64,000 bases of DNA from an uncultured Pseudomonadota bacterium (GTDB lineage Bacteria; Oederibacteriota; Muellerivitia; Muellerivitales; Muellerivitaceae), in assembly GCA_963770835.1 (NCBI GenBank), contig CAVYRH010000003.1, forward strand, positions 160,001 through 224,000, read 5' to 3'. Below, one piece after another: positions 1 through 52,314 of this stretch (positions within the stretch are counted from its first letter, which is position 1; every line of letters begins with the position of its first letter). The notes beneath the pieces are model-generated. The model searched no databases. It had not been told where the DNA came from and was given only the letters and a program-made list of their open reading frames with translations. The translations under genes were made by a program, and so were the position numbers.

Positions 1-694
1 CGACAAGCCTTACCAGTGGACTGAGATGCCTTACGACTTGAACCAGTCGACTGTCGACAGTCGACTGTCGACAGCAGAACAACAGATGCAACTGCAAACA
101 GTAAGAGAGGACAAAGAAAAGCAACGGATTAAAATTGCCGCAATTGATTGCGGCATTAAATACAACATCCTGCGCCGCCTGATGGCCGAGGGGTTCGACG
201 TGACGGTTTACCCGGCGACCACCAAGGTGAAAGACCTGATGAACAAAGGGCACAAAGGAGTGTTCTTGTCCAACGGTCCGGGCGACCCGGAAGGCGTACC
301 CTATGTGGCGAAGATGGTACGGGAACTGATCGAAAAAAGTGTGCCGATTTTTGGCATCTGCCTAGGGCATCAAATCCTGGGGCTAGCCTTGGGCGGCAAG
401 ACCTACAAACTCAAGTTCGGCCACCGGGGGGCTAACCAGCCGGTGTTGAATACCCTCAACCAAAAAGTCGAAATCACCAGCCAAAACCACGGATTCTGCG
501 TAGAGACGGAAAGCCTGAATAAGGATGAAGTGATCCCGACCCATATCAACTTGAGCGACAACACTTCCGAGGGCATGGCCATGAAGAAAAAGCCGGTTTA
601 TAGCGTGCAGTACCACCCCGAGGCTTCACCTGGCCCGCATGACTCGCGGTATCTCTTTAAACAATTCCGCGAGATGGTCGAGCGGAACGGCTAA
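1..694 (+). CDS. carA: Carbamoyl-phosphate synthase small subunit, 3' part (5' end outside window)
   Basis: Motifs SNGPGDP, PIFGICLGHQ, KFGHRGANQPV, TSQNHGF, SVQYHPEASPGPHD; upstream of carB. Confidence 0.97.
   Translation, partial: DKPYQWTEMPYDLNQSTVDSRLSTAEQQMQLQTVREDKEKQRIKIAAIDCGIKYNILRRLMAEGFDVTVYPATTKVKDLMNKGHKGVFLSNGPGDPEGVPYVAKMVRELIEKSVPIFGICLGHQILGLALGGKTYKLKFGHRGANQPVLNTLNQKVEITSQNHGFCVETESLNKDEVIPTHINLSDNTSEGMAMKKKPVYSVQYHPEASPGPHDSRYLFKQFREMVERNG
45..74. repeat. Heptamer tandem/palindromic repeat (A/T)GTCGAC x4, in frame inside carA
   Basis: agtcgac tgtcgac agtcgac tgtcgac ag, encoding STVDSRLST. Confidence 0.85.
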
Positions 695-714
695 TCGAAT
701 AAGAGGAGGCTGCC

Positions 715-1050
715 GTGGATGACGAGCAAAAGACGGTCTTTCATAGGAAAGATGGAGTGCGGCGGTACCAGGTCGAGCACATGAAGGAGCGTCTTATCCG
801 GAGGGTCCACCGCTCCCATTTGGTGCCCCTGGTCATCATTGTTTTCCTGGGTTTTTGTATGTGGAAGGGGATGGATATCCGGACCTGGCAGGTCTGGGCC
901 CCCTGCGCTGCCTTGGCGGCGGTCTATTTCTTGACCATGGCCTTGAGCGTATGTCCCCGATGCGGCCGCCGGTTCTTCGGCGGCTTGGGTTGGCTTTTCG
1001 GGTTCGCGCATAGTGTCCATTGCGGCAAATGCGGGTTCAAGTTGTTCTGA
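715..1050 (+). CDS. Small membrane protein, two TM helices plus C-terminal CxxC...CxxC zinc ribbon
   Basis: GAGGAGG RBS before GTG; hydrophobic segments; CPRC and CGKC motifs. Confidence 0.75.
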   Translation: MDDEQKTVFHRKDGVRRYQVEHMKERLIRRVHRSHLVPLVIIVFLGFCMWKGMDIRTWQVWAPCAALAAVYFLTMALSVCPRCGRRFFGGLGWLFGFAHSVHCGKCGFKLF

Positions 1051-1069
1051 TCAACGGGGGTTGTTCTAA

Positions 1070-1177
1070 ATGCCTAAACGCACTGACATCAAAAAGATCA
1101 TGGCCATCGGAGCCGGCCCGCACGATTCAAGGTATTTGTTTAAACAGTTCAGGGAGATGGTTGAAAAGAATGGTTAG
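1070..1177 (+). pseudogene. 35-aa chimeric mini-ORF: carB N-terminus fused to carA C-terminus
   Basis: Translates [35 protein letters not shown]; matches 1591-1641 and 632-694. Confidence 0.92.
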
Positions 1178-1194
1178 GAATTTAAAGATTTAGT

Positions 1195-1232
1195 CGTCAT
1201 TGCACGGAACGAATTTTGAGACGAAGCAACCC
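1195..1232. repeat. Degenerate GTCATTGC...GACGAAGCAA(T/C)CC-type intergenic repeat
   Basis: gtcattgcacggaacgaattttgagacgaagcaaccc resembles a widespread REP-like repeat; single degenerate copy here. Confidence 0.4.
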
Positions 1233-1281
1233 AAGTTCATGGGTGGTTTATGTCAAAGAGATTAGTTTGAAATGGGTCTTC

Positions 1282-1578
1282 ATGGATAAGAAATATAAAG
1301 AGTTTTTCAAAATGATGAAATTCACGAATTGGTTGATTTTGGTCTTAACCATTGGATTGATTCCTTTTTTGTTATTAATGTCCCATATCCCTTGGTTCTA
1401 TTTAAGAAACGGATCGATTTTTTCTTACATATTTTTTTGGTGGGGATCCGGATTCTTTCGTGGTTCGGTTAGGTGCCCACGCTGCCGAAAAATGTTTTGT
1501 GTCAAATCTTTAGGCGTTCTTAATTTTGGAAATCCTTTTAGTGGTGAATGCTTGAATTGTGGTCTGAAAAACAAATGA
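1282..1578 (+). CDS. Small membrane protein, two TM helices plus C-terminal zinc ribbon; AT-rich counterpart of 715-1050
   Basis: CPRC...CLNCG motifs; same architecture as 715-1050; start uncertain. Confidence 0.7.
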   Translation: MDKKYKEFFKMMKFTNWLILVLTIGLIPFLLLMSHIPWFYLRNGSIFSYIFFWWGSGFFRGSVRCPRCRKMFCVKSLGVLNFGNPFSGECLNCGLKNK

Positions 1579-1590
1579 AAATGGGAAAAC

Positions 1591-4500
1591 ATGCCCAAAC
1601 GGACTGACATCAAAAAGATCATGGTCATCGGGGCCGGGCCCATCATCATCGGGCAGGCCTGCGAGTTCGACTATTCGGGCACCCAGGGCTGCAAGGCCCT
1701 GAAGGAAGAGGGCTACGAGGTCATCCTCATCAACTCCAACCCCGCCACCATCATGACCGACCCGGAATTCGCCCACCGCACCTATGTGGAACCCATCACC
1801 CCCGAAGTTTGCCGCAAAATCATTGAAAAAGAACGTCCGGACGCCCTTTTGCCGACCCTGGGGGGCCAGACGGCCCTCAATACCGCCGTGGCCCTGGCCG
1901 AGAACGGCACCTTGAACGAATTCAAGGTGGAACTTATCGGCGCAAATCTAGCCGCCATCAAGAAGGCCGAAGACCGCCAGCTTTTCAAGGAAGCCATGAT
2001 CAAGATCGGCCTGGACCTTCCTGATTCCCTAACCGTGAAGACCCTTGAAGAGGGGATTGGCTTCGCCGAAACCAACGGGTATCCCGTCATTATCCGGCCC
2101 GCCTTTACCTTGGGCGGCACGGGCGGCGGCATCGCCTATAACCGCCAGGAATTTGAGGAAATCCTCTCCAAGGGCATCGACCTGTCACCTATCCACCAAT
2201 GCCTGGTGGAGCAATCGGTCATGGGCTGGAAGGAATTCGAGATGGAGGTCATGCGCGACCTCAAGGACAACGTGGTCATCATCTGCTCCATCGAGAACAT
2301 GGACCCCATGGGTATCCACACCGGGGATTCGGTGACGGTGGCCCCGGCCCAAACCCTCACCGACAAGGAATACCAGCGCATGCGGGACGCCTCCATCGCC
2401 TGCATCCGGGAGATCGGCGTGGATACGGGCGGCTCCAATATCCAGTTCGGCGTGGACCCCAAGACGGGCCGTATGGTCATCATCGAGATGAACCCCCGGG
2501 TGTCCCGCTCCTCGGCCCTGGCTTCCAAGGCCACGGGGTTCCCCATCGCCAAGATCGCGGCCAAACTGGCTGTCGGCTACAGCCTGGACGAGATCTTCAA
2601 CGACATCACCCGCTACACCAAGGCGGCCTTCGAGCCCACCATCGATTACGTGGTCACCAAGATCCCCCGTTTCACCTTCGAGAAATTCCCCGACGCCGAG
2701 GACATCCTGAACACCTCCATGAAGAGCGTGGGCGAGACCATGTCCATCGGTCGCACCTTCAAGGAAAGCTACCAGAAGGCCCTGCGGTCCATGGAAACTG
2801 GCACCATCGGCCTGGGCGCCGACGGGCGGGAATGGAAGGAAGGCCGCTGGCAGAGGACCGGCGTCCGCAAGCCCCGGGGCTTGTCCCACGACGTCCTTGA
2901 CGCCCAGTTGCGCAAGCCCACCTCGCAACGGCATTTCTTCGTGCGCCAGGCCCTTTGGCAGAACTATGACGGTGGACAAGCTTTACAAGCTCTCGGCCAT
3001 CGACCCCTGGTTCCTGAATGAGATGAAGGAGATCGTGGACCTGGAGAAGGAACTGGAAAAATCAACCGCCAAGCGCGGCAAATTGAGGACCAAACTGCCC
3101 GACGACCTTTTGCGGCGGGCCAAGGCTTACGGCTTTTCCGACCCCCAACTGGCCTTCCTTTGCGGGGTCAAGGAAACGGACATCCGCAAGTACCGTAAGA
3201 TGCGGGGCGTAAAACCCGTTTACAAGATGGTGGACACTTGCGCCGCCGAGTTCGAGGCCTTCACGCCTTATCTATATTCCACTTATGAATTGGGCCGGTC
3301 CTCCTTCGCGGGGAAGGATGTGGAAGCCGGGCCGACCAAAGAAAACAAGATCATGATCCTGGGCGGCGGGCCCAACCGCATCGGGCAGGGCATCGAGTTC
3401 GACTATTGCTGCGTGCACGGGGCTTTCGCGCTTCAAGGCCGACGGGTATGAAGTCATCATGGTGAACAACAATCCCGAAACCGTCTCCACCGATTACGAC
3501 ACGTCCAACCGCCTTTATTTCGAGCCCCTGACCTTTGAGGATGTCATGAACATCCTGGACCGGGAAAATCCCAAGGGGGTCATCGTGCAGTTCGGGGGCC
3601 AGACACCCCTGAAATTGGCGGTTTCCCTGAAAAAGGCGGGGGCGCCCATCATCGGCACCTCGCCCGAATCCATCGACGTGGCCGAGGACCGCAAACTCTT
3701 CGGGGCCATGTTGAGGCGCCTGAAGATCCGCCAGCCGGACAACGGCATCGCCATGAACGTCAAGCAGGCCAAGCCCGTGGCCCGTAAGGTGGGTTATCCG
3801 GTGGTGGTCCGCCCTTCCTACGTCCTGGGCGGCCGGGCCATGGAGATCGTCTATGACGAGGAATCCCTGGACGAGTTCGTGGTCAAGGCGGCGGAAGCGG
3901 CCCCGGACAAGCCCATTCTGATCGACCATTTCCTGGAGGACGCCATTGAAGTGGACGTGGACTGCGTCTGCGACGGGAAGGAAGTGCTAGTTGCGGGCAT
4001 CATGGAGCATATCGAGGAAGCGGGCATCCATTCGGGCGATTCGGCCTGCGTGATTCCGCCCTATACCCTACGGGAAGACCAGATCAACACCATCCGCAAG
4101 TACACCAAGGAAATGGCCCTGAGCCCTCAAGGTGAAGGGCCTGATGAACGTCCAATACGCCATAAAGAACGACCTCGTGTATGTGCTGGAAGTGAACCCC
4201 CGGGCCTCCCGCACCGTGCCTTTCGTCTCCAAGGCCACGGGCACACCCTGGGCCAAGGTGGCGGCCCGGCTCATGGCGGGGAAGACCATCGCTGGCTTGA
4301 AGGTCAAGGAAGTTTCCTACCTCAAGCATATTGCCGTGAAGGAATCGGTATTTCCCTTCAACCGATTCCCGGGCGTGGACACGGTCCTGGGGCCGGAAAT
4401 GAAATCCACGGGCGAAGTCATGGGTATCGACAACGATTTCGGCATGGCCTTCTCCAAGAGCCAGATGGCGGCCAACTCTTCCCTACCCCTCAAGGGCACG

Positions 4501-4897
4501 GTTTTCGTATCCGTGAAAAACAAGGACAAGCGGTCAGTGATTTTTATCGCCAAACGCCTGAGCGACATGGGGTTCAAACTGGTGGCCACCCAGGGAACGG
4601 CCCAGGCCCTTACCAGCAATGGCCTGGAGGTGACGGTGGTGCGCAAGGTGCATGAGGGGCGGCCCAACGTGGTGGACCTCATCAAGAACGGCGGGCATCC
4701 AGCTCATCATGAACACTCCGGCGGGGAAGGGCCCCAGGTCGGACGACTTCCAAATCCGCCGCACGGCGGTGGTCTATAACGTTCCTTGTATCACCACGCT
4801 CTCGGCCTGCGCGGCCGCCGCCAACGGTATCGAGGCCTTGAAGAAACGCGAAATCAAGGTGAAGTCACTGCAGGCCCATTTTTCAAATGAAATATAG
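1591..4897 (+). CDS. carB: Carbamoyl-phosphate synthase large subunit, split by four frameshifts (~2960, ~3435, ~4125, ~4695)
   Basis: [73 protein letters not shown] and an MGS domain, spread over five ORF pieces. Confidence 0.96.
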
Positions 4898-5243
4898 ATT
4901 TGGATGGATGGGCCCGGGCCCATTGTCTTATTTGTCTTAATGGAAAGAACGGGCAGGAACATCACCAAAAATAAAAAAGCTTTTGTTCGCTCTTAATTGG
5001 AAATCTTTAAAAAAGTCCCGGTTTGTTTAATCGTCAGAATCCCACCCCAAGTCGTCAAAACTTCTGACAATTTTTGGCGTTTTTTCTGAATTGTATTCTA
5101 TTGAAAAAAGCGTGCAAGAAATTGTCAATTTAAAAGCAATTTGCACGATAAATAAAAGAAAACAAAGTGTTAAGGGCATAAATATTGCAGTTAAAATGCT
5201 AAGGTTAACCGTAAGACATTTTCTTATCTAAAGGTTCGGTTTT

Positions 5244-33947: not shown

Positions 33948-34193
33948 ATGAAAACTTCGACCATCAACCTATCCATACCCAGGGATCTCCTGGAAAAAGC
34001 GGACCGGGAAGCGAAGAAGGAATCCCGGAGCCGGTCCGAATTGATGCGCGAGGCCCTGCGGGCCTACATCGAGAGGCAAGCCCGATGGGAAAGAATCACC
34101 ACTTACTCCGACGCCCAGGTTGAGAAGATGGGCCTTGCCCCCGGGGATGTCGAAGCGATCATCCAGGAGGACCGGAAAGCGCGGCAACGGTGA
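33948..34193 (+). CDS. Ribbon-helix-helix (CopG-type) antitoxin
   Basis: INLSIP..LL...D..A.....SRSELMREALR; overlaps the PIN gene. Confidence 0.85.
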   Translation: MKTSTINLSIPRDLLEKADREAKKESRSRSELMREALRAYIERQARWERITTYSDAQVEKMGLAPGDVEAIIQEDRKARQR

Positions 34194-34708
34194 AGCAGGT
34201 CGTTTTCGACACGAATGTTTGGATTTCCGCGATCGCTTTTCATGGGCGCGTCCGGCGGCTGCGGGATGAGGCCGTCCATGAAAGGATCCGGGTGGCAGTG
34301 TCCCCGGCCATTCTTGAGGAAACCATCCGGATCCTGAGCGGGCCCAAGTTTCGGTATTCCCCTGACGAAGTGGCGGTCATCGAGCTTGAGATCAGGGAAC
34401 TTGCCCGCATGGTCCGGCCGTCGGAACATTTGGAAGCCGTCAAAGCCGACCCGGACGACGATCGGGTCCTGGAATGCGCGGTGGAGTCGGGATCCGAAAT
34501 CATCGTTTCGGGCGACAGCCATCTTTTGGACCTTGGAACCTTCAGGGGTATCCGCATTATGGGCCCGGCGGCTTTCCTTGGGGAACTTGAGACGGGGAAA
34601 GGGACGGATCCGGGGAAAGGGCCCGGTGTGGAGGAGTCCCCGGCGGCATACGGTGCCGGAGGTAAGAAAGCCAAGGGAAGCCCCGCGAAGAGGGTTAAGG
34701 CGAGGTAG
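34190..34708 (+). CDS. PIN-family toxin with C-terminal extension
   Basis: VVFDTNVWIS, DPDDDRVLECA, IVSGDSHLL. Confidence 0.88.
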   Translation: MKQVVFDTNVWISAIAFHGRVRRLRDEAVHERIRVAVSPAILEETIRILSGPKFRYSPDEVAVIELEIRELARMVRPSEHLEAVKADPDDDRVLECAVESGSEIIVSGDSHLLDLGTFRGIRIMGPAAFLGELETGKGTDPGKGPGVEESPAAYGAGGKKAKGSPAKRVKAR

Positions 34709-34808
34709 GATGATTTGCCCAAATCAAAACCTTCTTCAAACCCGCCATTGGCGTTTCGGCTGGTTTTGATAAAATAATCACAGGCAACGAGGTCCGAAAG
34801 GAAAAACC

Positions 34809-35060
34809 ATGAGCGTCCAAGTTTCTATTTCAATGCCCGATTCGGCCTTTTCGGCCCTTAAGCGGAGCCCAAAGGAATTCGCCAAGGAAATGCGGCTTGC
34901 CGCGGCGGTGAAATGGTACGAAGCCGGCATGGTTTCGCAGGCCAAGGCGGCGGAACTGGCCGGTCTGAACCGCGCGGGATTCCTTCAGTCCCTGGACAGG
35001 TTCAAAGTCACCCCGTTCCAATATGACGCAGGCGACCTCGAACGTGAAATGAATGAATAG
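34809..35060 (+). CDS. UPF0175-family putative antitoxin
   Basis: RLAAAVKWYE.G.VSQAKAAELAGL.R..FL. Confidence 0.82.
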   Translation: MSVQVSISMPDSAFSALKRSPKEFAKEMRLAAAVKWYEAGMVSQAKAAELAGLNRAGFLQSLDRFKVTPFQYDAGDLEREMNE

Positions 35061-35652
35061 GAGCTGGGTTTTCGACAGCTCCGCCCTCATCGCCCTCGGT
35101 AAAATCGACCGGTTGGACTTGATCACGGGGCTCCCTGGTGTCTTCCACGTCCCGCACGCAGTCAAGAAGGAAATCCTCTCTAGAAAACCACCGGACCCGG
35201 CCTCCCTCTGGCCGCTCGATAAAAACTGTCCCGCCCGGGTGGTTCGTACGCCCTTGGACAGGGCTGTGTTGTCATGGGATCTTGGGGCTGGGGAATCGGA
35301 AACGATTTGCCATTGCTTGAGGCACCGTGGTTGCGTGGCGGTCTTGGACGACCGAATGGGAAGGCGTTGTGCCAAGGCGATGGGTGTCCAGGTCAAAGGG
35401 ACGGTTGGACTTCTTTTATGGCTCAAAGAGCAAGGAAAACTCGATAAAATTAAACCGGTTTTGGGTTCGCTTTCAAAGTCAGGTTTTCACCTTGATCCCG
35501 CCGTATTTAAATTGGCCCCGAAACTAGCTGGCGAGCATGAAAGCGGATTAGGCGGGGAATATTCCCTTACCGCCCATGAAGCTCCCGCCGTATATAAGAC
35601 CACCACATCAAAAAAGCCCAAAACCAGGCGTCCTCAACGGAAACGCAAATAG
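35053..35652 (+). CDS. DUF3368-type PIN protein with C-terminal extension
   Basis: VFDSSALIAL, DLGAGESE, LDDR.GRR.A..MG..V.GTVGLL. Confidence 0.82.
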   Translation: MNRSWVFDSSALIALGKIDRLDLITGLPGVFHVPHAVKKEILSRKPPDPASLWPLDKNCPARVVRTPLDRAVLSWDLGAGESETICHCLRHRGCVAVLDDRMGRRCAKAMGVQVKGTVGLLLWLKEQGKLDKIKPVLGSLSKSGFHLDPAVFKLAPKLAGEHESGLGGEYSLTAHEAPAVYKTTTSKKPKTRRPQRKRK

Positions 35653-35659
35653 GTCCCGG

Positions 35660-35700
35660 TTGGACCAAACTTGACCAACTTGACCAAGTCCAGGTAAAAT
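35660..35700 (+). promoter_or_regulatory. Promoter/operator of the phd-vapC module
   Basis: Tandem TTG(G)ACCAA x3; TTGACC-18-TAAAAT. Confidence 0.6.
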
Positions 35701-35706
35701 AAGCTC

Positions 35707-35982
35707 ATGAAAAATAAATACTCCATTTACGAGGCCAAGACCCACCTCAGCGAGATTCTCCGCCAGGTCAAGAACAACCGGGAGATCGTCATTACTGACC
35801 GGGGCAAGGAAGTGGCGCGGGTGGTTCCCGCCGTGGATTCAACCAACTTTGAGAAACGCATCGAAGCCCTGAAACGGGCAGGCATTATCACTCCTGCCAC
35901 CGGCCGCCCCTCAGAGATCAAGCCCATCGCCCATATTCCCGGAGCCTTGAAGCGCTTCCTGGAAACCCGGAATCGCTTTTGA
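35707..35982 (+). CDS. Phd/YefM-family antitoxin
   Basis: SIYEAKTHLSEILRQV...EIVITDRGKEVARVVP. Confidence 0.9.
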   Translation: MKNKYSIYEAKTHLSEILRQVKNNREIVITDRGKEVARVVPAVDSTNFEKRIEALKRAGIITPATGRPSEIKPIAHIPGALKRFLETRNRF

Positions 35983-36476
35983 AATCAGCGTTCTTTGACA
36001 CTTCAGCCTTAGCCGCTGTCCTTTTCAACGAGCCCTCTTCCCCCGCGGTCCAAAATATCCTGGAAGATATCGAAACAGTCCGTGCCTCAAGCCTCCTGGA
36101 AGCGGAAATCCGGAGTGCGGCGGCGAGGGAGGCCCTTGACCAGCGGGAAGTGGACGTTGTTCTTTCCAAGGTGGAATGGGTCCTGCCGGACCGCCCCCTT
36201 TCCCAGGAACTGCGGGTTGTAGCCTCATGTGGGATCCATTTGAGGGGCGCCGATGCCTGGCACCTGGCCTGCGCCCTCTACCTGGCGGGTGACCCGGCGA
36301 ACCTTCCTTTTGTGACCCTTGACGGGGACCAAGCCAAAGTGGCCAGCCACCTCGGCTTTAAGGCGCTCCCGGGGGGATTGCCACAGGGATCGGGAGTTCA
36401 CGAGCCCCCAATGCCGTATGGCGCCGGGGGTAGGAAGGCCAAGGGAAGCCGCGCGAAGAGGGTAAAAGCACATTGA
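35979..36476 (+). CDS. vapC: VapC-type PIN toxin with C-terminal extension
   Basis: FFDTSAL, E.RS, LRGADAWHLACA, FVTLD. Confidence 0.85.
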   Translation: MKSAFFDTSALAAVLFNEPSSPAVQNILEDIETVRASSLLEAEIRSAAAREALDQREVDVVLSKVEWVLPDRPLSQELRVVASCGIHLRGADAWHLACALYLAGDPANLPFVTLDGDQAKVASHLGFKALPGGLPQGSGVHEPPMPYGAGGRKAKGSRAKRVKAH

Positions 36477-37000: not shown

Positions 37001-37471
37001 ATGGCTCAAAATCCGTTAGGGGGGTTCCTCAAGGGCCTGTTTGGCCGTCAAACACCCAACCCCGCTGCCCAGGCCCCCGTACAGGCCCCTATGCCGAGGC
37101 CTCAAGCCGAGGCACAAGCCTTGGGTGTATCGGAGCAGGTTCGGGGCTCCGATGCCCCGGTCACAGCCCAACCCACTCCTCTAAGCCCCCAGCGCTCCCC
37201 AGCCACCCCGACCACCGAAGCCTACATGACCCGGAAGAAGGGCCGGAAGCTCCATAGAGATAGTTACGCGGACGCCAAAAGGCTCTACGAGAGCATCCAA
37301 CGCCGGGGGGAGGCTACCCCCGGGGACCTGGCCCAGGAGTTCGGCATGGCCCGGAGCTCCCTGGCCTATAACCTCAACCGGCTGGTGGCCAAGAAGTACG
37401 TTGAACGCCTCGGCGGCGGGCGGAGCATCCGGTACAAGGTAACGGGTGTTCCTTTGGGCAGGATCAATTGA
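37001..37471 (+). CDS. Winged helix-turn-helix protein with Pro/Gln-rich N-terminus
   Basis: ATPGDLAQEFGMARSSLAYNLNRLV..KYVERLGGGRSIRY. Confidence 0.75.
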   Translation: MAQNPLGGFLKGLFGRQTPNPAAQAPVQAPMPRPQAEAQALGVSEQVRGSDAPVTAQPTPLSPQRSPATPTTEAYMTRKKGRKLHRDSYADAKRLYESIQRRGEATPGDLAQEFGMARSSLAYNLNRLVAKKYVERLGGGRSIRYKVTGVPLGRIN

Positions 37472-37522
37472 AACTGAATAAAACAAGGCCAATGTTATAA
37501 TTTACCCGGAAAGAGGCCGCTT

Positions 37523-37762
37523 ATGGAACACCGACACTTTAAATACGACCGCATTACTTTCGACCCCGATAAATGCTTTGGGAAACCCTGCATCCGTGGT
37601 TATCGCATGCCGGTAGCAACGTTACTGGGTTATATGGCCGGCGGAATGACCATTCCGGAAATCCTGAAGGAATGGCCGGAACTTGAGAAAGACGACATTC
37701 TCCAAGCCCTCGCCTATGCCTCGTTGGAGGCTGAGGAGCGGTTCATCCCGGCCCGCCCTTGA
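37523..37762 (+). CDS. DUF433-family putative antitoxin
   Basis: RITFDPDKCFGKPCIRG.RMPV, G.TIPEIL..WP.LE..DI..ALAYA. Confidence 0.9.
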   Translation: MEHRHFKYDRITFDPDKCFGKPCIRGYRMPVATLLGYMAGGMTIPEILKEWPELEKDDILQALAYASLEAEERFIPARP

Positions 37763-38328
37763 AGTTTATCCTGGACGTCAACCTTCCGCCCTCGCTTTGC
37801 CAACGGCTGGCCCGGCATAGCCACGAGGCATTCCATGCGGGGAAATTAGGATTATGGAAAGCCACCGACGAAACCGTCTTATCCTTGGCGGAATCACAGG
37901 GCGCGGTCCTTTTGACCCATGATCTTGGTTTTGGCAAATTACTGGCCTTTTCCCAAAAGGAAAAACCCTCTGTCGTAATTTTCCGCCTTGAAAAACTGAA
38001 TTCTGAAATTTTGGAGGGAATTTTATTAAAAGATTGGGGCTTGATCGAAAGGCCTGTCTTGCTGGGAGCCATTGTAGTGATCGAGGAGAATGACGTTCGA
38101 ATCCGGCGGCTTCCCATCGGAGGAACGGGCCTTGAAGGGCTTCCTGAAGTCCATGAAGCGCCCGCCGCTTACAAGGCGGGCCCTTCGAGAAAGCCCGCTG
38201 ACCCGAGGCCCTCAAGCCGAGGGGTGAGCCTTGCGCGTGCCGGGCCGGGGGACGGAGTTGACGACGTCCCACAAAGGGCCTGGCCCAAAGCCGGGCGTTC
38301 CAAGCCGAAACCTAAGAAGCGGAAATAA
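37759..38328 (+). CDS. DUF5615-type PIN-like toxin with long C-terminal extension
   Basis: MKFILDVNLP, ATDETV, LLTHDLGFG, PSVVIFRL, VRIRRLPI. Confidence 0.85.
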   Translation: MKFILDVNLPPSLCQRLARHSHEAFHAGKLGLWKATDETVLSLAESQGAVLLTHDLGFGKLLAFSQKEKPSVVIFRLEKLNSEILEGILLKDWGLIERPVLLGAIVVIEENDVRIRRLPIGGTGLEGLPEVHEAPAAYKAGPSRKPADPRPSSRGVSLARAGPGDGVDDVPQRAWPKAGRSKPKPKKRK

Positions 38329-38423
38329 GGAAAAAGGTCCTCGCTGAATGAACTGTTTTCAAAAGACTCATCACTCCTCACTTCGCACTCATAACTCAGG
38401 GGCCAAGAACTTGGCCACTGGAA

Positions 38424-38533
38424 TGGCCTATAACCTCAACCGGCTGGTGGCCAAAAAGTACATTGAACGGATCGGTGGGGGCCGGAGTATCCGGTACAAG
38501 GTAACGGGTGTTCCCTTGGGCAGGATTAATTGA
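38424..38533 (+). pseudogene. Second copy of the last 110 nt of the wHTH gene (37362-37471)
   Basis: 10 mismatches in 110 nt, 8 synonymous; its stop overlaps the TTG start of the next gene. Confidence 0.92.
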
Positions 38534-49662: not shown

Positions 49663-51210
49663 TTGAACCCAAAATTGCTGGTCCTCTATCAATATTACTC
49701 ACCCGATGATGTTGTCAGTGCGGTTCATTTCACTGATTTGTGTGAGGGACTTTCCAAGAGTGGTTTTGCCGAACCCAATCTTGGTGCCTCCGCAAGCTCC
49801 GGCACCTCGGTTCGGCACACACAAAGCCCTCTCCTCGGCTTGAGGGTCTCGGAGAAGTGGGAAGTCGAGGTCTGGCCCAGCAACCGGGCCTGCCACGATC
49901 TAAAAGCCACCTATACCACCAAGCCGGAAACGGTGAACGGAGTGACCATCCGCCGGGTTTGGAGGCCGCCTTTCTCCCAGCATTCCTTCCTGGGCCGGAT
50001 CCTCAATTCCATCTGGATGCTGAAACGCTGGTGGTGGCGGCTTCTTTTATCACCCTCCATCCAACCGGACGTGATCCTGACGGGCACCGACCCGCTGTTT
50101 ACCATAATCCTCATCCCTTTCCTGAAAATGATCCGCCCCAAGGCCAAGATCGTCCACTGGTGCTTCGACCTCTATCCCGAGGCCGCCATCGCCGACGGCA
50201 TGCTGAAGGAAAACGGCCCCGTGGTGAAGCTCGCGAGGCCTTTCCTGGAAAAAGGCTACGCGAAATGCGATTTGGTGGCCGACCTGGGGCCTTGCATGAG
50301 GGAAAAGTTAAAAAAATATGGAATTGAAACACCTAAGGCTGAAGCACCCTCACCCCAACCCTCTCCCCTTAAGGGAGAGGGGGGAGCCGATTCAACCGAA
50401 TACCAAAAGGCCTCCCCGCTGCATCTTCTCGGTGAAAAACGAGTTGTGACCCTGACTCCCTGGGCCTTGGAGGAACCCTCTGCTCCTCTGCCAATCGACC
50501 TGGTAGAAAGGGAAGCCCTTTTTGGGGCCGAGCCCATGGGTGATGCCTCCGCAAGCTCCGGCATCTCGGCTCGGCCCACCTCACCCATCGGGCTTACGCC
50601 CGAGGGCGACAAAAATCGTCGGAGCTCGCCCCGAGGCTCGAGGGCCTCGGGGCAGGGGAAATTTCAATTAGCCCTGCTTTATTCCGGCAACCTGGGCCGG
50701 GCCCACGACTTTTACCTCAATTTGAAGCTGGCCCAACGGATGCGCGATTCCGCGGGGTTCACCTACAGCGTGCGGGGCAGCCGGGTGGACGCCTTGAAGC
50801 TGGCGGTGAACCCGGAATATACCAATATCCGTTTCGCGCCCTTCGCCCCGCCGGAGCGCCTGGCCGCGCGGCTGGCCGCGCCCGACGTGCACGTGGTGAG
50901 CCTTCGCCCCGAGTGGACGGGCACGGTGGTGCCCTCCAAATTCTTCGGGGCCCTGGCCGTGGGCCGGCCCGTGCTTTTCGAGGGCGACGAGCATTCCTCC
51001 ATCGCCCTCTGGATCAAGGAATATGGGGTGGGCTGGGTTTTGGGCGTCAGGAACATGGAGGATGTCGCGGAGGAACTGGAGAAGTTCTCCAAGGACGCCA
51101 AGAAGAAGGCGGAGATGTTCAAGCGGTGCCATCAAACCTACCAGGCCCATTTCTCAAAGGCCACGATTCTTTCCAAATGGGAGGCTGAATTGAGGGCATT
51201 GCTGCCCTGA
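49663..51210 (+). CDS. Glycosyltransferase family 4 (WbuB/WcaI-like) with three in-frame repeat insertions
   Basis: QYYSPD, DLYPE, LYSGNLGRAH, VPSKFFGALAVGRPV. Confidence 0.85.
   Translation: MNPKLLVLYQYYSPDDVVSAVHFTDLCEGLSKSGFAEPNLGASASSGTSVRHTQSPLLGLRVSEKWEVEVWPSNRACHDLKATYTTKPETVNGVTIRRVWRPPFSQHSFLGRILNSIWMLKRWWWRLLLSPSIQPDVILTGTDPLFTIILIPFLKMIRPKAKIVHWCFDLYPEAAIADGMLKENGPVVKLARPFLEKGYAKCDLVADLGPCMREKLKKYGIETPKAEAPSPQPSPLKGEGGADSTEYQKASPLHLLGEKRVVTLTPWALEEPSAPLPIDLVEREALFGAEPMGDASASSGISARPTSPIGLTPEGDKNRRSSPRGSRASGQGKFQLALLYSGNLGRAHDFYLNLKLAQRMRDSAGFTYSVRGSRVDALKLAVNPEYTNIRFAPFAPPERLAARLAAPDVHVVSLRPEWTGTVVPSKFFGALAVGRPVLFEGDEHSSIALWIKEYGVGWVLGVRNMEDVAEELEKFSKDAKKKAEMFKRCHQTYQAHFSKATILSKWEAELRALLP
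49768..49853. repeat. In-frame palindromic insertion 1 in the GT4
   Basis: gccgaacc..ggtgcc-tccgcaagctcc-ggcacc-tc-ggttcggc, then cctcggcttgagggtctcgg. Confidence 0.8.
50345..50382. repeat. In-frame REP-like unit in the GT4 (PSPQPSPLKGEG)
   Basis: caccctcaccccaaccctctccccttaagggagaggg. Confidence 0.8.
50527..50653. repeat. In-frame palindromic insertion 3 in the GT4
   Basis: gccgagcc..gatgcc-tccgcaagctcc-ggcatc-tc-ggctcggc plus hairpins tcgggc-ttac-gcccga and gccccgaggc..gcctcggggc. Confidence 0.8.
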
Positions 51211-51291
51211 TCCAGCTTGTGTCCATAGTGGCCTTCGGGCCTGGCACACCCAAACCGCGTGTCTCGCCTTGTGGGCTCGACACAGGGGTAC

Positions 51292-51360
51292 CAAGCCCAT
51301 TTTTCAAGAGCCGCTGTGATCTCCCATTGGGATGAAGAACTTCGAGCCCTCTTGTCTTAA
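51292..51360 (+). pseudogene. Alternative GT4 C-terminus, copy 2
   Basis: QAHFSRAAVISHWDEELRALLS* versus QAHFSKATILSKWEAELRALLP* at 51142-51210. Confidence 0.85.
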
Positions 51361-51527
51361 TAACACGCGGGGACTAGCTGCGGCTCCCGGGCTTGGTACA
51401 CCCAAGGCTCGCGCCTCGGCTTGCATTCGTCCCTGCTGGGACGATTGCGACCAATTCTTGCACCTCGCCTTGTGGGCTCGGTGCAGGACGGGCTACTACC
51501 GCTCTTCGAGGCTACGGCGCAGGGGAC

Positions 51528-51596
51528 CAGGCTCATTTCTCCAAAAAAATCGTCCTCGACGCCTGGGACCGGGAACTGCGATCCCTCCTGGCTTAA
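51528..51596 (+). pseudogene. Alternative GT4 C-terminus, copy 3
   Basis: QAHFSKKIVLDAWDRELRSLLA*, same 69-nt length. Confidence 0.85.
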
Positions 51597-51601
51597 TCCA
51601 A

Positions 51602-51633
51602 TTGTTCCCAAAATGGTAACATTAGGGTAGAAT
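51602..51633 (+). promoter_or_regulatory. higBA promoter with imperfect palindromic operator
   Basis: TGTTCCC-aaaat-GGTAACA followed by TAGAAT. Confidence 0.55.
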
Positions 51634-51639
51634 CCAACC

Positions 51640-51939
51640 ATGAGGGTCATCAGCCTGAGGGGCTTAAAAAAATTCTGGGAAAGTCCTGAGGGCAAGGAAT
51701 CGGAAAGCCCTTTGCGGGTATGGATCAAGGAAGCCCGGGGGGCCCATTGGAAAGGGCCGCACGACGTTAAGGCCCAATATCGAACAGCTAGCATCTTAAA
51801 AAGTGGCCGGGTTGTATTTAATGTTGGTGGGAATAAATTCAGGTTGGTGACGGTTGTGTTTTACGACGTTCAAATCGTGTTTATCCGATTTATAGGAACG
51901 CACACCCAATACGATCAAATAGACGCGCAGGAGGTTTGA
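51640..51939 (+). CDS. higB: HigB-family mRNase toxin
   Basis: MRVIS, W..P.DVK, RVVFNVGGNKFRL, IRFIGTH.QYD. Confidence 0.92.
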   Translation: MRVISLRGLKKFWESPEGKESESPLRVWIKEARGAHWKGPHDVKAQYRTASILKSGRVVFNVGGNKFRLVTVVFYDVQIVFIRFIGTHTQYDQIDAQEV

Positions 51940-51942
51940 GAA

Positions 51943-52314
51943 ATGAAGCCCAAAGTCCTTAAAACCGAAAAAGATTACGACAGGGCGCTTCGATATATCG
52001 AGGGCCTCATGAAGATTCCCAAAAGCTCCTCCCGAAACGAAGAGTTGGATTTATGGGCGACCCTTGTGGAGGCTTACGAAAAAACACATTACCCGATTGA
52101 CGATCCTGATCCTATTGAAGCTATCAAGTTTCGGATGGACCAAATGGGGTTAAAACCCGCCGATTTAGCCAAACTTTTGGGGGGGAGGAGCCGGGTTTCC
52201 GAGGTGTTGAACCGAAAGCGTCCCCTTTCCGTTTCCATGATGCGGAGTCTTTACAAAGACCTTCACGTTCCGGCTGAATCGCTCTTGGCCGAACCTTCGC
52301 CCAAGTATCGTTAA
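51943..52314 (+). CDS. higA: HigA-family HTH antitoxin
   Basis: LVEAYEK.HYPI..PDPIEAIKFRMDQ.GL, SRVSEVLNRKRPLS. Confidence 0.92.
   Translation: MKPKVLKTEKDYDRALRYIEGLMKIPKSSSRNEELDLWATLVEAYEKTHYPIDDPDPIEAIKFRMDQMGLKPADLAKLLGGRSRVSEVLNRKRPLSVSMMRSLYKDLHVPAESLLAEPSPKYR

Follow-up and report, generated by a model that had tools for sequence, protein, structure and literature searches.

Two alleles of the carA–carB spacer stand in tandem in an uncultured soil bacterium

We examined the boundary between carA and carB of an uncultured soil bacterium with a 4.58-Mb genome in a 64,000-nucleotide (nt) stretch of contig CAVYRH010000003.1 (positions 160,001 to 224,000; hereafter the window, to which all coordinates refer unless a contig is named), and compared it with loci of relatives, where G000 is the source genome, other G numbers denote genomes of its family and L numbers denote loci. 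All features of the boundary lie on the + strand. The 3′ part of carA (2..694) encodes the GATase domain (Pfam PF00117, E 2.7e-52), and its last 63 nt (632-694) belong to the allele found together with gene 1 in relatives. Gene 1 (715..1050), called from its open reading frame (ORF) and homologue alignment, encodes a 111-aa protein of an unnamed family with two helices and a CPxC..CxxCG motif, and has a GC content of 0.57. It is followed by a 35-aa chimeric ORF (1070..1177), which we call the scar. Sequence comparison resolves the scar into a 17-codon copy of the carB start (1070..1120), likely the right flank of donor DNA, and a spare carA 3′ end of 20 codons plus stop (1115..1177), likely the displaced resident end. 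Of a palindromic repeat dispersed in the genome, the left half (about 1189..1250) lies between the scar and gene 2 (1282..1578), a second ORF supported by homologue alignment that encodes a 98-aa protein of the same family (120 aa if read from TTG 1216), with a GC content of 0.36 and 0.40 at third codon positions (GC3); the N-termini of homologues make ATG 1282 the more likely start. The true carB start is at 1591, and carB (1591..4897) is recognized by its Pfam CPSase_L_D1/D2 domains. Genes 1 and 2 are the sole genes of the spacer, in which neither a Pfam match at cut-off nor a recombinase gene was found.

The composition of the scar proved to be as a sequence-only reading of this DNA had described it. 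The two carA-end copies (632-694 and 1115-1177) differ at 16/63 nt and one residue (R/K), the two carB-start copies (1070-1120 and 1591-1641) differ at 6/51 nt and one residue (A/V), and the ORF at 1070-1177 fuses 17 codons of the carB start in frame to the last 20 codons of carA at a Gly-Pro pair. Against the whole 4.58-Mb genome both copies are beyond chance (blastn E 1.8e-11 for the carB-start copy, tblastn E 2e-9 for the carA-end copy). The joint is a short microhomology of G and C only, (CC)GGCCCG at 1113..1120, which encodes Gly-Pro in frame for both carA and carB. Its GGCCCG hexamer is identical to carA and the true carB reads GGGCCC, so that two of the six carB differences fall within the joint; given the alleles of relatives (carB of G021; carA of G010 and L082), the shared stretch would extend to as many as 8 bases, CCGGCCCG. 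The joint falls on Gly-Pro codons common to both genes, and an in-frame joint would keep carB free from polarity.

The order of these pieces is genuine. The assembled carB is broken over several frames, and comparison with L075, L082, L008 and L012 shows a single surplus base near 2970 and another near 3430; the breaks are probably assembly indel errors and not marks of a pseudogene. Such error-like indels lend some colour to the idea that the tandem layout is an assembly chimera of two haplotypes, the objection that the sequence-only reading had raised against itself. However, Logan short-read contigs (handles in brackets) match the window with 0 differences over 400-857 (X2), 623-837 (X3), 954-1181 (X2), 1019-1215 (X5) and 1065-1680 (X1). 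The bridging runs come from three studies, of which two span the junction of gene 1 and the scar and the third the junction of the scar, gene 2 and carB; depth is low, the whole stretch is in no single contig, and one run is perhaps the source sample. Because short-read contigs bridge every junction without a mismatch, the layout does not stem from merged haplotypes, an assembly artefact is ruled out, and the probability that we assign to a chimera is negligible.

We found that the two carA ends differ as alleles do. Averaged over pathways, 11.5 synonymous and 3.5 non-synonymous changes separate them, a departure from neutral decay with P=9e-7; the proportions of differing synonymous (pS) and non-synonymous (pN) sites are 0.97 and 0.07 for the spare end, and the carB starts are separated by 5 synonymous and 1 non-synonymous changes (P=0.003). 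The spare carA end matches the functional end of its own genome at 47/63 nt, versus 53-54/63 nt for nine functional carA ends at other loci (three of them identical copies), among them G020, L088, G021, L075, L078, L079 and L089. The true carA end matches the ends that precede gene 1 in L082, the third unit of G002, G004 and L080 at 55-59/63 nt. Two of these, G004 and L080, agree with it at 57 and 55/63 nt but are only 70-72% identical over 481-631; because the ends match though this flank differs, gene end and spacer gene (hereafter cargo) travel together. Since the spare end differs mainly at silent sites and the true end tracks gene 1 in five relatives, these data support the proposal that two different carA–carB spacer alleles stand here in tandem, each with an end resembling functional ends of other lineages, and not a duplicate in decay.

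The same comparisons make it very unlikely that the arrangement arose by tandem duplication in place through microhomology, with subsequent divergence, or with one of the gene copies being replaced. Genes 1 and 2 are distantly homologous (pairwise BLASTP E 8e-4), and a few scars elsewhere in the genome resemble neutral decay, both of which suit a duplication. But the two genes are only 17% identical in alignment and differ in GC3 (0.76 vs 0.40), yet the scraps of carA and carB keep 19/20 and 16/17 residues, differ nearly only silently and match other lineages better, and if one gene copy was replaced later, this would have called for the same kind of short-homology exchange on which the insertion proposed below relies. 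Plain duplication with divergence is refuted by the silent-site excess and by the closer match to other lineages' ends.

The carA–carB spacer is variable across the family. Among 31 genomes, 25 have the carA end and carB start on one contig; their spacers, read by ORF only, comprise 11 that are empty, 5 with one gene and no scar, 2 with one gene after a carA-end copy and 7 with two or more genes (2-4), so that 14/25 hold 1-4 different genes, the variable content by which minimal-mobile-element loci are defined. Relatives were expected to carry single-unit versions of the spacer, and this was borne out in part: G001, G007, G017, G023 and G042 have one gene without a scar, but a single-unit allele with exactly gene 2 was not found, the best family match being 40% identical. 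Gene 1 has orthologues in G002, G004, G045, L080 and L082 with 81-88% nt identity, all within the carA–carB spacer; it is the first unit in G000, G004, L080 and L082 and the last in G002, where it lies directly before carB and thus exemplifies the kind of donor that the insertion model needs. Clear spare carA ends occur in 6/25 family genomes (G000, G002 twice, G004, G011, G015 and G045) and in 2/16 metagenome loci (L080 and L082; some metagenome loci duplicate counted genomes), and the one in G021 is weak. The clear ones start at about -63 (G000, G004, G011, L082 and L080), about -42 (G045 and G015) or about -100 (G002, twice), and carA therefore has no fixed crossover point. The three-unit stack of G002 (G002:C59:1376-3280, L003) consists of a small unnamed gene, a pair judged by eye to be nucleotidyltransferase-like and HEPN-like, and gene 1, and both of its spare carA ends carry an identical insertion of about 55 nt, a hairpin within the YHPE codons.

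These comparisons also changed the standing of the chimeric ORF, which the sequence-only reading had taken to define a cassette array. It does not do so: it is a one-off scar, and in the other stacks the carA-end copies are plain and their breakpoints different. None of the 14 metagenome spacers that we read, and none of the 24 remaining family spacers, showed a carB-start duplicate, and one degenerate pattern for the carB/carA fusion, with exact matches required, gave 0 matches in GTDB genome contigs, among which the source genome is perhaps absent. The 35-aa ORF is likely a by-product. It is highly improbable that it encodes a selected regulatory or interfering CarB/CarA peptide, for which its open frame, ATG start, upstream G-rich stretch and mere two residue changes from the parent proteins might speak; the absence of the fusion from that GTDB scan and from all relatives examined argues against such a role, as does a V12A change in the carB scrap, where 0/44 other carB starts examined have Ala. 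V12A is a first sign of decay, and the equivalent, older spare carA ends in relatives hold stops and missense changes.

The structure requires one crossover by homology and one joint by microhomology. On balance we lean towards a reading in which a relative's spacer was inserted ahead of the resident allele through one homologous crossover in carA and one GC microhomology joint, a process known as homology-facilitated illegitimate recombination (HFIR). Linear DNA of a relative, consisting of carA end, gene 1 and carB start, would be taken up by natural transformation; its left side would recombine into carA by a RecA-type crossover, and its right side would be joined illegitimately, at 6-8 bases of GC microhomology, to the Gly-Pro codons of the resident carA, so that the old carA end and gene 2 would be pushed downstream instead of deleted. 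We infer that unit 1 is the incoming and unit 2 the resident one. A product of HFIR has a single joint, formed at a short microhomology rich in GC. Both flanks of the donor are kept in the scar, and the insert would therefore be a relative's version of the same spacer, with a few GC bases having sufficed for the joint. The mosaic structure of carA and the linkage of end and cargo fit homologous exchange, but the carAB locus itself shows stacking with one illegitimate joint. Both comEC and dprA are intact in the genome, and natural competence is putative.

Once present, a spare gene end could act as a second homology arm, and ordinary homologous recombination would then be enough to pass units on and to stack them before whatever allele is resident. 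G004, G011 and L082 have scars with a common junction and the same Y-to-C change, yet the genes downstream of them differ, and because of this an existing scar has likely been reused in this way. Such reuse would explain how an illegitimate event that is rare could nevertheless give rise to many stacks.

A possible but doubtful alternative to linear donor DNA is a circle. Recombination between the Gly-Pro microhomologies of carA and carB in a single-unit donor would release a circle of about 0.5 kb with carA end, gene 1 and carB start, which a recipient would acquire through a single Campbell-type crossover, placed either in the 63-nt carA end or in the 51-nt carB start; the product would be identical, with the events in another order. 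Such a circle would have precisely the chimeric ORF as its junction, the match of G004 and L080 to the window only in the last ~63 nt of carA indicates that a unit can move on short homology, and parts of PMC2935791 present a circular intermediate as the model for the displacement of tips in Rhs loci. Set against this, no joint from about 1120 back to about 632 is listed in four short-read runs (contigs only, at low depth), and carA remains similar to L082, a lineage with gene 1, on the upstream side of the joint as well. Stretches of 51-63 nt at 75-90% identity are, moreover, poor substrates for RecA.

Several observations weigh against insertion of linear DNA by HFIR. Over about 200-640, carA is 83-96% like L082 in a sliding window, but it is equally like G010, which has another end, and as carA is mosaic family-wide no limits can be set to the donor tract on the upstream side of the joint; for this reason a linear donor is not distinguished from a circle. 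Both comEC and dprA are common, each scoring over cut-off in 10/14 control genomes, and MutS, which would hinder a crossover at 75-85% identity, is present. The stretches of homology themselves are short and diverged. The exact pre-insertion allele, with carA, repeat, gene 2 and carB in this order, was not found in the family. Several scars abut hairpin repeats, which leaves room for an enzyme acting in trans. HFIR is, finally, orders of magnitude rarer than homologous recombination in the account given in portions of PMC5361080, a rarity hard to square with the roughly 17 scars of this one genome.

That number comes from a scan of the whole genome, in which the last 30 aa of each gene were compared with the 5 kb downstream and non-paralogue copies were counted. 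Such a copy was found for 27/2,671 genes, with 0/2,671 on the opposite strand and 0/2,255 at 50 kb as controls; a control with mid-gene queries gave 10/2,659, by eye mainly small paralogues. We judged 17/27 by eye to be gene-end scars and set the other 10 aside as small paralogues or weak matches. The 17 include genes that Pfam names as carA, leuA, metH, class II ribonucleotide reductase, asnB, kdpC, P-type ATPase, DUF1501, rhomboid, pirin, prolyl oligopeptidase, GT2, TPR protein and MarR-type, two that we take to be comM-like and lpd-like, and one at window position 51210; an 18th spare end, at window position 34708, lies outside the 27-gene count. Pooled over 18 loci, pS is 0.40 and pN 0.08 (the latter biased downward, as scars were detected by protein similarity), and a synonymous excess is present in 14/18; the four scars without it (nrdJ, prolyl-oligopeptidase, TPR and P-type ATPase) count against the insertion reading. 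Toxin–antitoxin-type pairs were recognized by Pfam in 7/18 inserts (for one pair only the antitoxin is named), cargo at the other spare-end loci includes PIN, Phd, HepT, DUF433 and others, and no integrase was found in any insert scanned. The arrangement is not confined to carAB but recurs at many gene ends of this genome.

Besides carAB, three of these loci lie in the window. At 33948-36473, the PIN gene ending at 34708 is followed by UPF0175/DUF3368 and Phd/PIN pairs and then by an end copy fused to the last PIN ORF; at 37001-38533, the MarR-type gene ending at 37471 is followed by a DUF433/DUF5615 pair and a 110-nt, 91% copy of the gene end; and at 51210-52311, a hairpin precedes a diverged copy of the upstream gene's last ~24 codons, a HigB toxin gene and its likely HigA partner. 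A second stacking site is leuA: G002:C43:4000-10700 (L136) has three leuA ends with different breakpoints, the spare ones measuring 115 and 89 nt, and in G000:C11:91098-92150 (L096) spare leuA ends of 15 and ~55 codons surround a nucleotidyltransferase–HepT pair. For the nucleotidyltransferase–HEPN pair behind leuA in the source genome, relatives at 70-82% stand at other loci of six genomes; the one in G018 lies within a 200-nt, 96% repeat of the end of a different gene. Gene starts can be duplicated as well, with a TPR-gene end and the start of marC enclosing a small gene together with a PIN_3 gene at G000:C16:14309-19069 (L106) and the start of an AddA-like helicase gene around a Phd/PIN pair at G000:C26:96500-97700 (L105).

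Most spacer genes at carAB form one family, with two hydrophobic helices, a CPxC...CxxCG motif and a mean column identity of 25%, and the AlphaFold model of gene 2 (predicted local distance difference test score 85) has helices at 3-33 and 38-61 and a Cys4 tail. A profile of the family finds 4,422 clusters at E<=0.001, the weaker of which are perhaps generic zinc ribbons. In a phylum scan it scored in 15/30 other family genomes and 1/68 others, a skew that is partly built in because the alignment was made from family members. NCBIfam, PHROGs and PADLOC gave only scattered weak zinc-ribbon or membrane matches (<=4/21 members per family), ESM Atlas neighbours are unnamed clusters only, Foldseek against the PDB gave no match at E<=0.001, the best VIA-align hit (Z 8.0) is to an uninformative generic helical hairpin, and 36 homologues have hypothetical or automatic labels only. 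Members also occur singly inside other operons; a fifth, weaker member in the source genome (G000:C3:118942-119247, GC 0.35) stands alone between genes of an apparent sugar or lipopolysaccharide operon. Others lie beside or between sites of a 28-bp palindrome (11-6-11) that was recovered genome-wide with 19 dyads in its top cluster: L158 (G003:C349), L156 (G043:C9) and L062 (G000:C26:597120 area). Because the family adjoins these sites, the two routes of gene collection seem to draw on one pool of cargo. The family behaves as typical mobile cargo, and from its variability and company one might guess at a role in membrane-level protection, as phage or toxin immunity.

It is unlikely, in our estimate, that an enzyme in trans makes the gene-end duplications, whether a HUH/Y1 transposase acting on hairpin repeats or a serine recombinase proposed for the 28-bp-site arrays. 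The genome has 11 Y1_Tnp genes, repeat tails abut the scar in G004, G011, G045, L080 and L082 and a hairpin does so in G015, cargo of the family adjoins 28-bp dyad sites in G003, G043 and G000:C26, and the nucleotidyltransferase–HEPN cargo behind leuA here sits within the gene-end repeat of G018. However, the 28-bp site is absent from window 1-5000 at <=8 mismatches, the joint in the window runs from carB to carA coding sequence without a hairpin, and breakpoints vary within a locus, with no common motif across loci when judged by eye. We regard as unlikely a wider conception, in which the last 15-100 codons of housekeeping genes in the candidate division FCPU426, to which the organism belongs, would be distributed, self-renewing docking sites, with units of gene tail and cargo excising or transferring as modules, supplying a fresh tail and pushing older units back. 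Such a system would be integron-like and newest-first without an att site, possibly HUH-driven in trans, with a cargo pool common with the 28-bp-site arrays; if it exists, the scar at carAB would record a founding event in which the two flanks of the donor can still be read.

We compared the carAB case with known ways of collecting genes. Rhs loci undergo sequential displacement, for which sections of Jackson et al. 2009 (PMC2935791) propose a circular intermediate, and for effector–immunity arrays of the Vibrio type VI secretion system (T6SS) portions of Kirchberger et al. 2017 (PMC5361080) propose HFIR. To judge from these portions, both resemble the present case in having an intact gene followed by low-GC cargo and variable-length fragments of its own conserved part, with incoming units displacing older ones downstream without an integrase; such upstream-gene fragments stand between cargo for carA in G000, G002 (two), G004, G011, G015, G045, L080 and L082 and for leuA in G000 and G002. 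Unlike the Rhs and T6SS loci as described there, the anchor here is an essential metabolic gene, carA, whose protein is unchanged, and not a polymorphic toxin or secretion gene; the downstream gene varies instead of a toxin tip, and many unrelated housekeeping genes are involved, with an immunity role for the cargo possible.

Passages of PMC3787668 and PMC1797815 define the minimal mobile elements of Neisseria (Saunders & Snyder 2002; Snyder 2007) as small gene sets that alternate at a site flanked by one conserved gene pair and that lack a mobility gene. The present locus is similar in this, but in those passages the sets replace one another, whereas the alleles here are stacked, with fragments of the flanking genes left behind. 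According to parts of Furuta et al. 2010 (PMC2853133), insertion with long target duplication involves a direct repeat >30 bp, an insert <20 kb and no mobile-element gene, with repeats that often cover a start or stop codon, an intact target gene and occurrence mainly in naturally competent species. The window's 63-nt direct repeat, its copies 483 nt apart, with an empty site in 11/25 genomes, has the geometry of that class, and the sizes of repeat and insert, the lack of a mobile-element gene and the intact target gene are alike. In PMC2853133, by contrast, the cargo is restriction-modification systems and the repeats, in the cases examined, are mostly 93-100% alike; here they are 75-90% alike and allelic, and the cargo is small membrane proteins or toxin–antitoxin pairs.

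Rows of acquired genes are also formed by integrons and clusters of attC sites lacking integron integrases (CALINs), by integrase-driven islands at gene 3′ ends and by SCCmec tandem arrays. These too are rows of small, often low-GC accessory genes and toxin–antitoxin pairs, the newest unit likely beside the anchor; unlike integrons and integrase islands (integrative and conjugative, integrative mobilizable and cis-mobilizable elements, and staphylococcal cassette chromosomes), the units here have no integrase, no fixed crossover and no palindromic site at the joint. A variable carA–carB spacer in Neisseria was reportedly described by Lawson in 1995 and Brinkman in 1997, accounts that our literature search did not find, and Nobusato is said to have treated insertion with long target duplication in 2000. 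The search returned no paper on stacked carA–carB spacers, although an earlier description of tandem minimal mobile elements is possible, and no paper on toxin–antitoxin cargo between duplicated housekeeping-gene ends without an integrase. What is distinctive here is a scar that keeps both donor flanks, in a layout that works like the known Rhs and T6SS displacement. The carAB case is a single scar and not a new machine, and serves as a record of one event that is unusually complete and as a marker of a lineage-wide habit. It bears on how a new gene first enters between core genes and how alleles come to pile up there instead of replacing one another, an issue for hotspots of horizontal transfer on which published cases are chiefly toxin loci or restriction systems. 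Spare gene ends provide a simple, computable mark for finding and ordering such events across genomes, and the unnamed cargo family offers a new target for function tests.

The dispersed palindromic repeat, presumably REP-like (repetitive extragenic palindromic) and overlooked in the sequence-only reading, has 15 similar left halves genome-wide, and in G010 a longer copy follows directly after the true carA end. Rfam gave 0 matches on 560-1750, the repeat included, a sigma-70-like promoter scan of the same interval found none, and a dyad scan of 560-1700 found two loose dyads of 9-10 pairs, both within coding sequence. Inside carA, positions 37-74 hold a tandem 14-nt repeat or palindrome (CAGTCGACTGTCGA x2), in a segment that is only 43-68% identical among relatives. 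Second carB-like genes are present at G019:C11:12838 and G009:C183:5261.

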